Part shown: positions 19,641-26,201 of the stretch, piece by piece | Layout of the letters: each line of letters opens with the position of its first letter | Position numbering within the stretch: position 1 is the stretch's first letter | Program-made: the position numbers and the translations under genes | Source of the DNA: Escherichia coli | GTDB lineage: Bacteria > Pseudomonadota > Gammaproteobacteria > Enterobacterales > Enterobacteriaceae | NCBI RefSeq assembly: GCF_036507355.1 | Contig: NZ_AP027877.1 | Length of the DNA stretch: 64,000 bases | Direction: 5' to 3' (one strand) | Notes under the pieces: model-generated | What the model saw: only the letters and a program-made list of their open reading frames with translations | What the model was told of the DNA's origin: nothing | Databases searched by the model: none

Positions 19641-19649
19641 GGAAGGGAA

Positions 19650-19712
19650 ACTTGACTTCATACTGTGATGTCATACTATTGATGTCATAAAGTGAAGTCA
19701 TAAGGACATGCC
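19650..19712 (+). promoter_or_regulatory. promoter with four tandem TGA(N)GTCATA-type repeats upstream of the hicA-like gene
   Basis: TTGACT, a 16-nt spacer, then TACTAT; overlapping repeats GACTTCATA, GATGTCATA, GATGTCATA, GAAGTCATA; AAGGA RBS before the ATG. Confidence 0.55.
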
Positions 19713-19988
19713 ATGAGAACCAAGGTACAGGCTTTACGGAAGAAACAAAAAAATACATTGGATCAAATATTTAAAACTCCTGTTCCTCAAGGGATCAAGT
19801 GGTCTGATATAGAGTCACTGGTTAAAGCATTAGGCGGAGAAATTAAGGAAGGAAGAGGTTCGCGTTGTAAGTTCATACTAAATATGAGCGTTGCGTGTTT
19901 CCATCGGCCTCATCCGTCGCCAGATACCGATAAAGGCGCTGTAGAAAGCGTGCGTGACTGGTTACTAAGTATAGGGGTAAAACCATGA
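19713..19988 (+). CDS. HicA-like toxin (putative mRNA interferase)
   Basis: 91-aa ORF; C-terminal part resembles the HicA fold signature (GS..KF...HRPHP...KGAV..V...L...G); 4-bp ATGA overlap with the downstream gene. Confidence 0.6.
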   Translation: MRTKVQALRKKQKNTLDQIFKTPVPQGIKWSDIESLVKALGGEIKEGRGSRCKFILNMSVACFHRPHPSPDTDKGAVESVRDWLLSIGVKP

Positions 19989-20344
19989 TCAAACTGAAGA
20001 CGCCAAACTCTATGGAGATTGCCGGGCAACCTGCTGTTATCACTTACGTGCCAGAACTGAATGCATTTCGTGGCAAATTCCTGGGCTTGTCAGGTTATTG
20101 TGATTTTGTCTCTGACAGCATTCAGGGGCTGCAAAAAGAAGGGGAACTTTCCCTGCGAGAGTATCTTGAGGATTGTAAAGCTGCGGGTATTGAGCCGTAT
20201 GCGCGTACAGAAAAGATTAAGACCTTTACGTTACGCTATCCAGAATCGCTGAGTGAACGCCTTAATAATGCGGCTGCGCAGCAACAAGTCTCTGTTAATA
20301 CCTATATTATTGAAACACTGAATGAGCGTTTGAATCATTTATAA
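19985..20344 (+). CDS. HicB-like antitoxin with C-terminal ribbon-helix-helix-like segment
   Basis: 119-aa ORF overlapping the upstream toxin-like gene; C-terminus RYPESLSERLNNAAAQQQVSVNTYIIETLNERL resembles an RHH DNA-binding motif. Confidence 0.55.
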   Translation: MIKLKTPNSMEIAGQPAVITYVPELNAFRGKFLGLSGYCDFVSDSIQGLQKEGELSLREYLEDCKAAGIEPYARTEKIKTFTLRYPESLSERLNNAAAQQQVSVNTYIIETLNERLNHL

Positions 20345-20348
20345 ATTT

Positions 20349-20387
20349 TAGCGGCCCAACAATTTCTGTTGCGCCGCTATATTTTTG
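20349..20387 (+). terminator. hairpin terminator after the hicB-like gene
   Basis: TAGCGGC ... GCCGCTA stem followed by TATTTTTGTGG. Confidence 0.5.
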
Positions 20388-20393
20388 TGGCTC

Positions 20394-21254
20394 TTAAGAT
20401 GCCTTTCTAACCAACCGATGTCCCTCATTCATCATCAGAATTTTGCTATACACATCTTCCTCTACGGCGTTTTTTGCTGATGCCATCACTCGTGCCAGAT
20501 TCGCCTCGTTGTGATTATTCACATACGCTTTGCCGACGGCGGTGATAAACGCTTTGCGCAGATCGCTGGCGATATTTACTTTAGCGACGCGATAATTAAC
20601 AAAGCTGCGTAATATCTCCGGGGCGATACCGGAGCCGCCGTGAATAACCAACGGCACCGGACAGACTTCGGCAATGCGCTTCAGCAGGGGGATATCGATA
20701 CGCGGTATATCGTCCAGGCCATGAACGTTGCCAATAGAAACTGCCAGCATGTCGCAACCGGTACGCTCGACAAAGGTCTTCACCTTTTCCGGTTCCGTTT
20801 TGCAATCGGCTTCGCTGACATGATCATCTTCTTTGCCGAGAATCGCCCCCAGCTCCGCTTCAACCGGTACACCATAGGATTTACAGAAATCGACAGCTTC
20901 CTGGGTGAAAGCGATATTCTCTTCAAAAGAGAATGCGGCACCGTCAATCATGACCGAGGTAAAGCCCGCGCGCACCGCCTGTTTCACATCCTCCTGAGTT
21001 TTCCCGTGATCCAGATGAAGACTGACCGGAACATCCATTTTATCGGCGTGACGTTTCACGATTTCATAAATGTAATCGTATCCCGAGAGTTGTGCATTGG
21101 TTGGCGCAATCTGAATGAAGTTGGGTAATCCCGAACGCTCAATAGCGTTTAAAATTGAAATTGTCGTCTCCAGATTGGTGGTATTAAATGCGCCCGCTAA
21201 TACCCGTTTTTCCTGAATGCGGTCGAGCAGTATCCGTCCATTAACTAATGGCAT
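20394..21254 (-). CDS. class II ketose-bisphosphate aldolase (tagatose/fructose-1,6-bisphosphate aldolase family, GatY/KbaY-like)
   Basis: 286-aa ORF with the class II aldolase pattern (LHLDHG, HGGSG). Confidence 0.8.
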   Translation of the reverse strand: MPLVNGRILLDRIQEKRVLAGAFNTTNLETTISILNAIERSGLPNFIQIAPTNAQLSGYDYIYEIVKRHADKMDVPVSLHLDHGKTQEDVKQAVRAGFTSVMIDGAAFSFEENIAFTQEAVDFCKSYGVPVEAELGAILGKEDDHVSEADCKTEPEKVKTFVERTGCDMLAVSIGNVHGLDDIPRIDIPLLKRIAEVCPVPLVIHGGSGIAPEILRSFVNYRVAKVNIASDLRKAFITAVGKAYVNNHNEANLARVMASAKNAVEEDVYSKILMMNEGHRLVRKAS

Positions 21255-21285
21255 ATTGAAAACCTCATCTTTTAATATCAGTTAA

Positions 21286-24404: not shown

Positions 24405-24480
24405 AATAAACCTCTTTTTCAGGCGAGAGCGCACCTCGCGTTAGCGCCTGATGGAGTGGGTTGAAATTAATTATTATTAA

Positions 24481-24762
24481 TTAATTTTTAAGGATCGAAA
24501 CAATTTGCGCCAGTACTTTCTCTTCGCCAATACCGGTAATAATCGGCAAGCCGTTAACTACCGGGACGTCGAGTTCATAAGGCACTTTAGTCGTTGAGAC
24601 TACCAGTGCTACGCCATCAGTATTTCCAGGTAAAGAGGCAACGTTGGTTTGGGAATAATTGACGTTAAGACCGTGCTCTTTACAATATTCCATGACTTTT
24701 TCTGTTACCGCCGTGGATGTGGCAATACCCGTGGCGCAGACAAATAAAATGGTTTGACTCAT
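24481..24762 (-). CDS. PTS EIIB component (galactitol type)
   Basis: 93-aa ORF; MSQTILFVCATGIATS with the active-site Cys. Confidence 0.8.
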   Translation of the reverse strand: MSQTILFVCATGIATSTAVTEKVMEYCKEHGLNVNYSQTNVASLPGNTDGVALVVSTTKVPYELDVPVVNGLPIITGIGEEKVLAQIVSILKN

Positions 24763-25232
24763 ATTTCACCTCGTTCTTTCATTTTGTTTAAGATTACTGT
24801 GTGTATTTCTGTTGTTTCCATCGCAAGCAGGGCTTGCATAAAGGGTGTATCCTGAATCATTTCCATAATCCAGCCCAGGGCATTTAATTGTTTATTACTT
24901 TCGCTTAAGGCGAGCAAAAAAATCACCCTGACAGGTACGGGGTCAGGATCGCCGCCCATATCGGCAAACTCTACCGGTTCCGGCAGGATGCCGACGGCAA
25001 TTGCATTGTGCCTGACATGTTTATGGTCCGTGTGCGGAATAGCGACGCACGGTGGTTCGGTAGGCAGCCCCGTTGGGTACGTCGCCTCACGTTTCAGTAC
25101 GTGATCGGCAAAATCAGGGACGACCAGCTCGGCGGCAACCAACGGTTGCGCTAACTGACGGATGATCTGTTCAACGCTTAACCCTGCCGGAAGTCGTTGA
25201 ATATAATTTTCCTGAAAATGTATGCCTTGCAT
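24759..25232 (-). CDS. PTS EIIA component (type 2, mannitol/fructose family)
   Basis: 157-aa ORF; conserved His in AIPHTD. Confidence 0.75.
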   Translation of the reverse strand: MQGIHFQENYIQRLPAGLSVEQIIRQLAQPLVAAELVVPDFADHVLKREATYPTGLPTEPPCVAIPHTDHKHVRHNAIAVGILPEPVEFADMGGDPDPVPVRVIFLLALSESNKQLNALGWIMEMIQDTPFMQALLAMETTEIHTVILNKMKERGEI

Positions 25233-25256
25233 TTTATTCCTCTTAAAAAAGTGTAC

Positions 25257-26003
25257 TTAACTCACTTCCCGCCGTTGCAGTACGGTGCCAAGATAATATT
25301 TATTTCCTTTTAACCAGACGTTGCCAAACTCAATGGGTAAACCTCGGGAGAAAAAGACTAACTGCTCCAGATGCAAAACGGGTGCGTCTTCACTGATATC
25401 TAAAAAATGACCACGTTCATTACCAATTAATCGCGCGGCATAGCGACTTTCCGAGTAACGAATTTTTCTTTGCGACAAACTTTCTATTGTTGGAAATAAA
25501 TTATGTTGATTAAAATCGATTTCCGCAATACCGGGGCATAGCTCAATATTGATACGGTTCTCTATCAGCATCGCTTTTTCATCACCAATTGAGCGTAAGC
25601 GTTCAAGGTAAAGAATATCCTGACCGGGCGTTATTCTTAATTTCTCTGCCACATAACGATTAGCCGGTTCAATCCGTGACGTAATAACTTCAGTGGTAAA
25701 ATGTATTTTCTGGCTTTCCAGCGATTCCGCGAATGACAATAATCCTTCACCTAACGGATATGCCACGTTCTCTTTTTTGACAAATGTTCCCTTACCCTGG
25801 ACCTGTATTAACACGCCTTCTTTTACCAGTTGGGCGACCGCTTTTTTAACGGTTCCCCGACTCACTTCCAGCATATCCATAATCTGGTATTCCGAAGGAA
25901 TGCGATCGTCTTCCACCAGATCTCCGGTATAAATACTTTCTCTTATCCACTCCACCACTTGTTGATAGAGCGGTATTTGTGACGACTTACTTAATGATTT
26001 CAT
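25257..26003 (-). CDS. GntR-family transcriptional regulator (HTH plus UTRA effector domain)
   Basis: ORF 25257..26012; N-terminal winged-HTH (IPSEYQIMDMLEVSRGTVKKAVAQLVKEGVL), C-terminal UTRA-like domain; directly upstream of the PTS genes on the same strand. Confidence 0.8.
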   Translation of the reverse strand: MKSLSKSSQIPLYQQVVEWIRESIYTGDLVEDDRIPSEYQIMDMLEVSRGTVKKAVAQLVKEGVLIQVQGKGTFVKKENVAYPLGEGLLSFAESLESQKIHFTTEVITSRIEPANRYVAEKLRITPGQDILYLERLRSIGDEKAMLIENRINIELCPGIAEIDFNQHNLFPTIESLSQRKIRYSESRYAARLIGNERGHFLDISEDAPVLHLEQLVFFSRGLPIEFGNVWLKGNKYYLGTVLQRREVS

Positions 26004-26026
26004 GGCGCGCACCTGAACATTTACAG

Positions 26027-26058
26027 TTGTCTATGGACAATCATGGACAACTTCAAGC
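26027..26058 (-). promoter_or_regulatory. candidate GntR-type operator upstream of the regulator gene
   Basis: Perfect palindrome TTGTCTATGGACAA followed by a repeated TGGACAAC half-site, about 25 nt upstream of the regulator start. Confidence 0.4.
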
Positions 26059-26201
26059 GTATAGTAGGTGAACGGGAGAAAAAGAGGATCGAAGCGTCTC
26101 ACATTTTGAGGGACCAAATCGTGATCAAAAAAATGTGACGTGAGTCGATATGTGTCAGAAGTTTACTGCGCCGTAAGGAAATAACGGCGCGTTGGTAGGT
26201 G

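Follow-up and report, generated by a model that had tools for sequence, protein, structure and literature searches.

What pathway is encoded between yhhJ and nikR in part of Escherichia coli, and did its genes arrive there recently? These questions are raised by a stretch of 64,000 nucleotides from E. coli (contig NZ_AP027877.1 of assembly GCF_036507355.1), here called the window, in which yhhJ ends with its stop codon at 19640, nikR occupies 26202-26603, and nine genes lie between the two. The block is composed of two independent units, a HicAB pair and a seven-gene catabolic operon. The operon, transcribed from the minus strand in the order gntR-EIIA-EIIB-EIIC-kinase-hpr-aldolase, is predicted to specify a phosphotransferase system (PTS)-kinase-aldolase pathway, set apart by an FGGY kinase in the place of the usual PfkB-type enzyme and by a dedicated, free-standing HPr. 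It is considered rather probable that the PTS yields a ketose phosphate, to which the FGGY kinase adds a second phosphate, and that the resulting bisphosphate is split by the aldolase. What we infer from the genes is this bisphosphate intermediate, the regiochemistry, what the HPr does, which compound acts as inducer and to which class the substrate belongs.

Components of the operon

Gene positions were taken from a list of open reading frames (ORFs) covering 17000-29000 of the window, and families were called from NCBIfam profile scores against curated cutoffs, with Pfam used for HicA and HicB. All nine genes that the initial annotation had placed at this junction were found present, intact and correctly typed by ORFs, NCBIfam, Pfam and the RefSeq annotation of E. 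coli O157:H7, which gives the same nine genes. The RefSeq starts make EIIC 452 amino acids and GntR 248 amino acids long, both shorter than the longest ORFs. A scan of the block with Rfam gave no match.

The kinase gene (21545-23053, minus strand as are all seven genes) encodes an FGGY-family carbohydrate kinase of 502 amino acids that reaches no NCBIfam equivalog. Its best match was to XylB with 145 bits against a cutoff of 380, FucK gave 119 bits, and none of the subfamily cutoffs for XylB, GlpK, FucK, RhaB, GntK, AraB or LsrK was attained. That it belongs to the FGGY family is indicated by the FGGY_N (PF00370) and FGGY_C (PF02782) domains recorded on all homologues and by its DIGTTNCK, GHD and TGT motifs. 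In fact, the motifs DIGTTNCK, W.D.R, ASRT, GHDHM.G, NSTGTTE and IGP are invariant in 124 homologues, and the adenosine motif is GP, not GG, throughout. The GHD motif within GHDHM.G, which we take to be a feature of ketose C1-kinases, fits with the similarity to FucK. By its profile scores, the kinase appears to represent an FGGY family that has no characterised member.

The last gene of the operon (20394-21254) encodes a class II, Zn-dependent ketose-phosphate aldolase of 286 amino acids, which scored 557 bits with the equivalog NF005943 (cutoff 364) and 221 bits with TIGR00167 (cutoff 215.6), and which stayed below the equivalog cutoffs for GatY (240 against 383), KbaY (182 against 542) and fructose-bisphosphate aldolase (FBA; 237 against 343). 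It has the F_bP_aldolase TIM barrel with a catalytic Asp and three Zn-binding His, as Asp82-His83 (in LDHG), His179 (VHG) and His205 (IHGGSG) correspond in the alignment to the residues of AgaY (1gvf) that serve catalysis and Zn binding.

Three genes encode the PTS. EIIC (23046-24404, 452 amino acids) has the Gat-family EIIC-GAT fold, with 476 bits to TIGR00827 (E 8e-143) and with Pfam PF03611 recorded on orthologues. EIIB (24481-24762) carries Cys9 (in FVCATG) and matches NF007643 below cutoff, and EIIA (24759-25232), of the EIIA_2 type, carries His67 (AIPH) and matches the GatA and FruA-IIA models below their cutoffs; both residues are conserved in six homologues. None of the three reached its galactitol-specific equivalog, the scores being 57 against 139 for EIIA, 60 against 95 for EIIB and 476 against 542 (GatC) for EIIC. 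The private HPr paralogue (21286-21555, 89 amino acids) scored 103 bits with TIGR01003 (cutoff 48) and contains His15, Arg17 (GLHARP) and Ser46, so that, in sum, the catalytic and phosphorelay residues of the aldolase, EIIA, EIIB and HPr are all present. It is not the orthologue of the housekeeping PtsH, as it reached 50.6 bits with PRK10850 against a cutoff of 153 and is about 31% identical to an E. coli PtsH reference sequence that was entered by hand. The first gene, gntR (25257-26003), encodes a regulator of the GntR family and HutC subfamily with a winged helix-turn-helix and a C-terminal UTRA domain (PF00392 and PF07702, recorded on orthologues); the HutC-subfamily models LSA1692, PhnF and TreR match over the full length and none reaches its cutoff. 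The hpr start overlaps the kinase stop by 11 nucleotides, and EIIC overlaps the kinase start by 8 nucleotides.

Relation to known pathways

Addition of one phosphate by a PTS and of another by an ATP-dependent kinase, followed by splitting of the bisphosphate by an aldolase, is the scheme of the fructose FruBKA, the Klebsiella/Bacillus licheniformis TagK tagatose and the LacC/LacD routes. The combination of a PTS, a kinase and a private HPr had been called unusual in the initial annotation, but in the fructose, tagatose and lactose routes a kinase normally follows the PTS, and the unusual part is the FGGY family of the kinase. The kinases of those routes are of the PfkB type and their PTSs belong to the Fru or Lac families, whereas the window operon has a Gat-family PTS. 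A private HPr-like domain serves the fructose and the Klebsiella tagatose systems as well, fused in their case, while the HPr here is a free-standing protein.

The gatYZABCD operon of E. coli K-12 shares with the window operon the Gat-family EIIA, EIIB and EIIC, a class II aldolase yielding dihydroxyacetone phosphate (DHAP) and, in the model, a ketose bisphosphate. It differs in possessing GatD and GatZ and in relying on PfkA, whereas the window operon has neither GatD nor GatZ and brings its own kinase and HPr; furthermore, the window components fall below the Gat equivalog cutoffs and an operon-carrying strain is dulcitol-negative. An orthologous cassette of the same seven families, likewise uncharacterised, is STM3779-STM3785 of Salmonella, next to Salmonella pathogenicity island 3. 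Its proteins are 83% (GntR), 62% (EIIA), 84% (EIIB), 89% (EIIC), 63% (kinase), 89% (aldolase) and 48% (HPr) identical to those of the window, while its last two genes are swapped (kinase-aldolase-HPr), its chromosomal locus is another one, and its HPr has Gly46 in place of Ser46.

The cassette across species

Ten neighbourhoods were inspected singly, and a species-level scan of 80 loci gave 79 usable ones, which were annotated with custom hidden Markov models. The invariant core across the 79 species is the class II aldolase and the cassette FGGY kinase, with the aldolase at most 7.5 kb from the kinase in 77 of the loci. The minimal PTS type consists of a regulator, EIIA, EIIB, EIIC, the kinase and the aldolase, with or without HPr and with no further enzyme; it occurs in Enterobacterales, Lactobacillales (Enterococcus, Tetragenococcus), Negativicutes and Clostridia, and a dehydrogenase or isomerase was found in none of its loci. 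The polyol type, seen in Enterobacterales, Bacillales, Gilliamella and two Enterococcus species, adds one to three Zn-dependent dehydrogenases to the minimal PTS genes, and one dehydrogenase of the Pantoea rwandensis locus is GatD-like (238 bits). In the PTS-less type, which belongs to Actinomycetota, the aldolase and cassette kinase are followed by a second, XylB-like FGGY kinase (305 bits, TIGR01312), often in the company of a major facilitator superfamily transporter and a dehydrogenase.

The Gat-family PTS and the second kinase are fully complementary. Among the 79 loci, 61 have the PTS and none of these 61 has a XylB-like kinase, while each of the 18 PTS-less loci has one. Because of this complementarity, the PTS and a ketose omega-kinase can be seen as interchangeable suppliers of one phosphate, with the cassette kinase as the constant element. 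In every PTS locus inspected, the EIIC and kinase genes overlap.

The private HPr was found in all 34 Enterobacterales loci and in four of the eight Bacillales loci, and nowhere else among the 79; a restriction to Enterobacterales, which had been entertained, was given up because of the Bacillales copies. The enterobacterial cassette HPrs form a family of their own with the motif NSTGLHARPAA, about 30% identical to PtsH (references again entered by hand), and fall into two subtypes that are about 47% identical, one with Ser46 (ATSMM) in E. coli and Citrobacter and the other with Gly46 (IKGMM) in Salmonella, Klebsiella, Cedecea and Rahnella. That every enterobacterial copy comes with a private HPr suggests either that the EIIA is poorly served by PtsH or that the pathway is insulated from PtsH-linked regulation.

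Between E. coli and Salmonella, HPr (48%), EIIA (62%) and the kinase (63%) are less conserved than the other four proteins (83-89%). In each pair of lineages these three evolve at about three times the rate of EIIC, EIIB, the aldolase and GntR, a heterogeneity that could reflect relaxed constraint or co-evolution of interacting partners. Displacement of the kinase by a non-orthologous FGGY gene was considered, in view of 36% identity for the kinase against 77% for EIIC, and was rejected, as the ratio is uniform in all pairs and the tree topology matches; because the same rate ratio holds in every pair, the kinase is orthologous but fast-evolving. By gene, the G+C content of the operon is 0.42 (gntR), 0.44 (EIIB), 0.49 (EIIA, HPr and aldolase), 0.51 (EIIC) and 0.54 (kinase), and the most G+C-rich gene, that of the kinase, is also the fastest-evolving enzyme gene.

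Some loci depart from the common arrangements. The Pantoea rwandensis locus is a mosaic, in which GntR (69%) and the aldolase (82%) are close to those of E. coli and the PTS components (33-58%) and kinase (37%) are distant; it also contains a SurE-type nucleotidase/phosphatase and two Zn-dependent dehydrogenases. Judging by this and similar loci, recombination seems to shuffle two modules, the regulator-aldolase(-HPr) half and the PTS-kinase half. Enterococcus raffinosus, E. malodoratus and E. avium have an additional class II aldolase gene some 300-370 bp downstream of the kinase, and four PTS-less loci of Microbacteriaceae have three consecutive FGGY genes, with a divergent third one after those of the cassette kinase and the XylB-like kinase.

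Proposed pathway

The following route is proposed. A single promoter next to nikR would drive the seven-gene operon. The general Enzyme I would hand phosphate to His15 of the private HPr, from where it would reach His67 of EIIA and then Cys9 of EIIB. Through the Gat-family EIIC a free ketose, for which a hexulose or heptulose is the most likely identity, would enter the cell as a ketose omega-phosphate. With ATP, the FGGY kinase would add the second phosphate, probably at C1, and the Zn-dependent class II aldolase would convert the ketose bisphosphate into DHAP and an aldose phosphate. The HutC-type GntR protein would repress at a TTGTCyATAGACAA-like operator overlapping the transcription start and would probably be released by a phosphorylated sugar.

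The assignment of carbon atoms draws on the partners seen in other species. Enzymes of the XylB type place phosphate on the terminal carbon that is distal to the keto group, dehydrogenases of the GatD type convert polyol phosphates to ketose omega-phosphates, and a DHAP-forming class II aldolase requires a phosphate at C1. Since XylB and GatD both give omega-phosphates and the aldolase requires the C1 phosphate, the cassette kinase is most likely a C1-kinase acting on a ketose omega-phosphate. The imported compound should itself be a ketose, because the E. coli operon contains no dehydrogenase or isomerase.

Several points weigh against this model. No FGGY kinase is known to us that takes a phosphosugar as its substrate, and a literature search found none. 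All 18 PTS-less loci belong to Actinomycetota, so that the split of 61 to 18 is phylogenetically confounded and does not amount to 79 independent events. Fructose-family ketose PTSs usually phosphorylate C1, and therefore the regiochemistry could be the reverse of that proposed. At two positions where FBA, tagatose-bisphosphate aldolase (TBA) and AgaY have Ser/Thr and Arg, the cassette aldolase has Ala and Lys-Asn; these positions are presumably the distal-phosphate ligands in FBA and TBA. The kinase family alignment contained no extra invariant basic residues beyond the generic FGGY motifs. Finally, the two kinases in the PTS-less loci also fit a route through a monophosphate.

That route, resembling fructolysis, is the best of the alternatives and is nonetheless judged unlikely. 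In it, the PTS would form a ketose 1-phosphate, the aldolase would release DHAP and a free aldehyde such as glyceraldehyde, and the FGGY kinase would phosphorylate the aldehyde or its reduced form, so that a PTS-less version would need two kinases here too. Among solved structures, the kinase comes closest to glycerol kinases (E about 1e-24), class II aldolases of the same fold that act on 1-monophosphates exist (the match to YdjI, 6ofu, is at 5e-43), and the aldolase differs from FBA and TBA at the two presumed distal-site positions just mentioned. However, the kinase that replaces the PTS is XylB-like, which by established knowledge makes it a ketose omega-kinase and not a C1-kinase; the cassette kinase has the FucK/RhaB-like GHD motif and no counterpart of Arg83, the glycerol-binding residue of GlpK; and the GatD-like polyol variants would give omega-phosphates that could not be cleaved without a C1 phosphate.

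Less probable still is a role of the private HPr mainly as regulator or phosphoryl donor of the FGGY kinase, as in HPr-GlpK of Firmicutes or HPr-LsrK of E. coli, and not simply as phosphocarrier to EIIA. The overlap of hpr with the 3' end of the kinase gene, which is found in the E. coli, Citrobacter and Enterobacter cancerogenus types, speaks for such a role, as do the family-wide GP in the adenosine motif and the fact that HPr, EIIA and the kinase are the three fast-evolving parts. Yet the same kinase occurs without a private HPr in Lactobacillales, Negativicutes, Clostridia, Orbales, Actinomycetota and half of Bacillales, and it evolves equally fast there (61% between Listeria and Enterococcus, for example); in the Salmonella type, moreover, hpr follows the aldolase and not the kinase.

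Beyond the bisphosphate model itself, it is possible, though slightly more doubtful than probable, that the kinase is the founder of an FGGY subfamily acting on ketose phosphates, at the core of a widespread modular ketose/polyol pathway that has its own insulated HPr in Enterobacterales. Under the same degree of doubt, the modules would be the aldolase-kinase core joined to a PTS, to a PTS with polyol dehydrogenases, or to a transporter with a XylB-like kinase.

Regulation and expression

Upstream of gntR, the element TTGTCTATGGACAA lies at 26027-26040 within an array of TTGTCCATGATTGTCCATAGACAAC at 26026-26051. On the coding (minus) strand, 26026-26051 reads GTTGTCCATGATTGTCCATAGACAAC, a putative operator just downstream of a -10-like TACTATAC (26059-26066). 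A palindromic operator of the TTGTCyATAGACAA type thus seems to be present at the promoter of the repressor's own gene. Arrays of TTGTaCA-type half-sites were seen at the same position in seven taxa including E. coli, Salmonella, Pantoea, Listeria, Enterococcus and Clostridium. This layout is as expected for an autoregulated HutC-type repressor, which would bind there. A site for CRP upstream of gntR was also looked for, and the best match, with only 7 of 10 consensus positions, was not convincing.

The tags of the operon in E. coli EDL933 are Z4874-Z4880. Z4875-77 and Z4879 ('hpR') were reported to be induced in bovine rumen and rectal contents, in a paper that labelled them as a galactitol transporter from annotation. 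In Salmonella, STM3779-3785 was described in 2013 as an AT-rich island of 'unknown carbohydrate utilization' that the subspecies I ancestor had gained; the island was reported to be H-NS-repressed and peroxide-induced, and STM3784 to be activated by ArcA under anaerobiosis. In 2024, STM3780-85 still stood under 'unknown sugars' and was induced in co-culture with permissive chicken caecal communities. Keyword and locus-tag searches of the literature found no functional characterisation of the operon. The view that its substrate is undefined thus holds, as the Salmonella orthologue was listed in these terms in 2013 and in 2024 and no curated equivalog names the kinase.

Its induction in rumen and rectal contents of cattle and in co-culture with chicken caecal communities suggests that the operon may feed these bacteria in the animal reservoir. 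Its carriers are about 30% of E. coli, including O157:H7, O121 Shiga toxin-producing E. coli, many B2 extraintestinal pathogenic E. coli (ExPEC), Nissle 1917 and the type strain of the species, along with subspecies I of Salmonella enterica and many Enterobacterales associated with plants or the gut. Identification of the substrate could explain part of their niche fitness and could provide a component for a selective or differential medium. If the bisphosphate model is true, the FGGY family would be extended to phosphosugar substrates. If the kinase does found a subfamily, it would be the FGGY-family counterpart of FruK, LacC and PfkA, and a class of ketoses or polyols missed by standard phenotype panels would be handled by a pathway that is on in ruminant and avian gut contents. 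The three interchangeable front ends are a natural experiment in pathway modularity. The operon would not surprise a specialist, yet it is a well-defined, testable orphan pathway in important enteric bacteria.

Candidate substrates

RefSeq calls the transporter a 'PTS galactitol transporter', a label that is not to be taken as a substrate assignment. That the operon serves galactitol, D-tagatose or another common hexitol or ketose is very improbable, although the EIIC is of the Gat family with 476 bits, the aldolase is related to GatY and KbaY, and the transcriptome paper applied the annotation-based label 'galactitol transporter' to Z4875-77. EIIA, EIIB, EIIC and the aldolase are all below the Gat curated cutoffs, and neither the GatD dehydrogenase nor GatZ is encoded.

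Published growth data bear on the same point, as E. coli Nissle 1917 (EcN) carries the operon intact and the type strain DSM 30083 carries all seven genes. EcN, unlike K-12, grows on D-psicose, L-sorbose and D-tagatose, with no cluster assigned for psicose; sorbose and tagatose have their own loci. After deletion of its ABC-type tag cluster, EcN showed no growth with D-tagatose, either aerobically or anaerobically (PMC9720028), and D-tagatose was rejected as a candidate, since EcN has the operon. The D-tagatose cluster of EcN and B2 strains (accC-yhdT), which fully accounts for growth of EcN on D-tagatose (PMC9720028), is, like the window operon, an accessory cluster for a ketose that encodes a class II aldolase along with a sugar kinase, and it is common in B2; it differs in its uptake by an ABC transporter, in its kinase, annotated as 'sugar kinase' only, and in its locus.

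D-psicose seemed promising at first, as EcN uses it and K-12 does not, and was set aside as unsupported because the operon-carrying type strain is psicose-negative, so that psicose use does not track the operon. The Biolog psicose well has been reported to be inconsistent. In published Biolog data the type strain is negative for dulcitol, adonitol, D-psicose, D- and L-arabitol, erythritol and xylitol, and also for maltitol, palatinose, turanose, sedoheptulosan and 5-ketogluconate. Galactitol and the common polyols were rejected on these negatives and on the lack of a dehydrogenase in the operon; the dulcitol result is indirect evidence that the operon does not support growth on galactitol. The reading is thereby largely refuted for aerobic growth, and the substrates suggested in the initial annotation mostly fail, given the dependence of D-tagatose growth on the tag cluster in EcN and the dulcitol-negative type strain. 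The substrate may lie outside the 190 Biolog carbon sources, or the operon may be silent under those aerobic conditions; silence on aerobic panels would fit with the H-NS repression and ArcA activation reported for Salmonella.

Two other clusters were noticed in these strains. At the yicH-yicI junction of EcN (26410-33353 of the retrieved segment) lies the ExPEC frz operon, with a BglG-type regulator, fructose-family EIIA, EIIB and EIIC, two class II aldolases, a ROK kinase and a cupin isomerase, which could account for EcN-specific ketose phenotypes such as D-psicose. Like the window operon, frz is an orphan accessory PTS with a kinase and a class II aldolase, present in EcN; it differs in its fructose-family PTS, its ROK kinase, its two aldolases and isomerase, its BglG/Mga-type regulator and its lack of an HPr. 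The type strain has, between rpoH and livJ (24142-28451 of the retrieved segment), an accessory cluster that EcN lacks at this position; its genes encode a mannose-family PTS (EIIA, B, C and D) and one protein each resembling phosphoglycerate dehydrogenase and DapA.

Distribution and age of the operon

A collection of 5,426 complete E. coli genomes was searched with the operon (20394-26012) as query. The operon was found in 1,637 genomes (about 30%), essentially at full length in 1,635, and always on the chromosome, while hicAB was found in 2,073. The union of the two is at most 3,130 genomes, so that at least 580 genomes carry both, and none of the 3,132 matches to the block lies on a plasmid.

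At least four states of this polymorphic junction occur. O157:H7, O121 and the window have both hicAB and the operon; the operon stands alone in B2 strains such as TUM13867, EcN and the type strain; hicAB stands alone in SE11; and K-12 MG1655 has rhsB-yhhH-yrhC-yhhI between nikR and yhhJ, in agreement with the RhsB element and H-repeat genes named in the initial annotation. Pairwise alignment of junctions showed two separate indels, one for hicAB (19641-20407) and one for the operon (about 20356-26203). The pair and the operon are therefore not the single accessory block that had been supposed, as they differ in indels, boundaries and distribution.

Between hicB and the aldolase gene, which converge, lies a stable hairpin (20349-20379), likely a bidirectional terminator, with a folding energy of -17.8 kcal/mol on the plus and -20.5 kcal/mol on the minus strand (z -4.4 and -5.0; none of 200 shuffled sequences folds as well). 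The breakpoint of operon-less, SE11-type genomes is inside this hairpin, as SE11 homology stops at 20355. Presence of hicAB alters the last codons of the aldolase gene, which ends in HRLVRKAS in the window and in RLVK in B2 strains. The spacer after yhhJ, which contains a repetitive extragenic palindromic (REP) element, is common to B2 strains and K-12.

Several observations bear on the age of the operon. In Citrobacter amalonaticus, too, nikR and yhhJ enclose these seven genes, with their order unchanged, and in a scan of one genome per species the kinases of E. whittamii, E. albertii and an Escherichia clade strain were 96-98% identical. Between the window and a B2 strain the operon diverges by 3.1%, and the adjoining ends of yhhJ and nikR by 2-3%; the two allele classes of the operon differ by about 3.5%, like flanking core genes. 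At the codon level, synonymous divergence (dS) between the window and two B2 genomes is 0.03-0.24 for the operon genes, and 0.07-0.24 in all gene comparisons but one, against 0.11-0.33 for yhhJ and nikR. With dN/dS (nonsynonymous to synonymous divergence) of 0.009-0.21 and all seven genes at full length, the operon is under purifying selection. None of the mobility signatures of a genomic island (integrase, tRNA target, direct repeats, plasmid or phage copies) was found: neither unit is flanked by direct repeats, no integrase is among the ORFs, and no tRNA is present. On a longer scale, the EIIC is 77% and the aldolase about 69% identical to those of the Enterococcus, Listeria and Clostridium cassettes, and the GntR 57% to the Firmicute cassette regulators; by this comparison the cassette clearly moved between phyla at some earlier time.

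The operon is accordingly an old, maintained occupant of the nikR-yhhJ site, and the K-12 Rhs/ISAs1 and SE11 states are derived ones; the derivation of the K-12 state is argued from the Citrobacter locus, the Escherichia kinases, the core-like dS and the lack of mobility signatures. Of the earlier proposal of a replacement island the polymorphism stood and the direction did not, given the same Citrobacter locus, kinases and dS. That the whole block is a recently acquired island which replaced a K-12-type RhsB region has thus hardly any credibility left: the G+C of gntR, EIIB, hicA and hicB (0.42-0.44, against 0.51 for the genome), the four or more junction states and the crossing of phyla by the cassette are in its favour, and against it stand the C. 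amalonaticus operon at the same locus, the near-identical Escherichia kinases, allele classes as far apart as flanking core genes with comparable dS, the absence of plasmid copies, repeats, integrase and tRNA, the REP-containing spacer shared by B2 and K-12, and the differing boundaries and distribution of the two units (2,073 against 1,637 genomes).

A minor observation concerns the left flank. The 3' end of yhhJ (18900-19700 of the window) has a best identity of only 98.9% among 5,413 complete E. coli genomes, while the adjoining hicAB has matches of 100% and the operon of 99.8%. This yhhJ allele seems to be absent from the collection and may mark a recombination boundary.

The HicAB pair

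On the plus strand, hicA (19713-19988) encodes a HicA-family toxin of 91 amino acids (PF07927, HicA_toxin, E 3.7e-9) and hicB (19985-20344) a HicB-family antitoxin (PF05534, E 3.5e-15). RefSeq agrees, naming the former 'HicA family toxin', and no NCBIfam model matches HicA or HicB. HicB has a C-terminus of the ribbon-helix-helix type, with weak matches to Arc/CopG besides PF05534. The two genes are adjacent with the toxin first, and the hicB start overlaps the hicA stop by 4 nucleotides (ATGA), which bears out the initial description as a toxin-antitoxin-like pair. By these domains and this order, hicAB would be a type II toxin-antitoxin pair of the HicA/HicB kind, which some lineages acquired by insertion next to yhhJ.

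In HicA, the sequence GRGSRCKF lacks a His at the place where the conserved Gly-Ser-His of HicA toxins would be expected. The region 19652-19712 is a putative promoter/operator of hicAB, with a sigma-70-like TTGACT-16-TACTAT (19652-19679) followed by three GATGTCATA / GAAGTCATA repeats. The pair shares with HicAB type II systems the toxin-first order, the overlap of the coding regions and the two Pfam domains, and differs from them in its long HicA, in which the Pfam match covers residues 30-80 only and is preceded by a 30-residue N-terminal extension.

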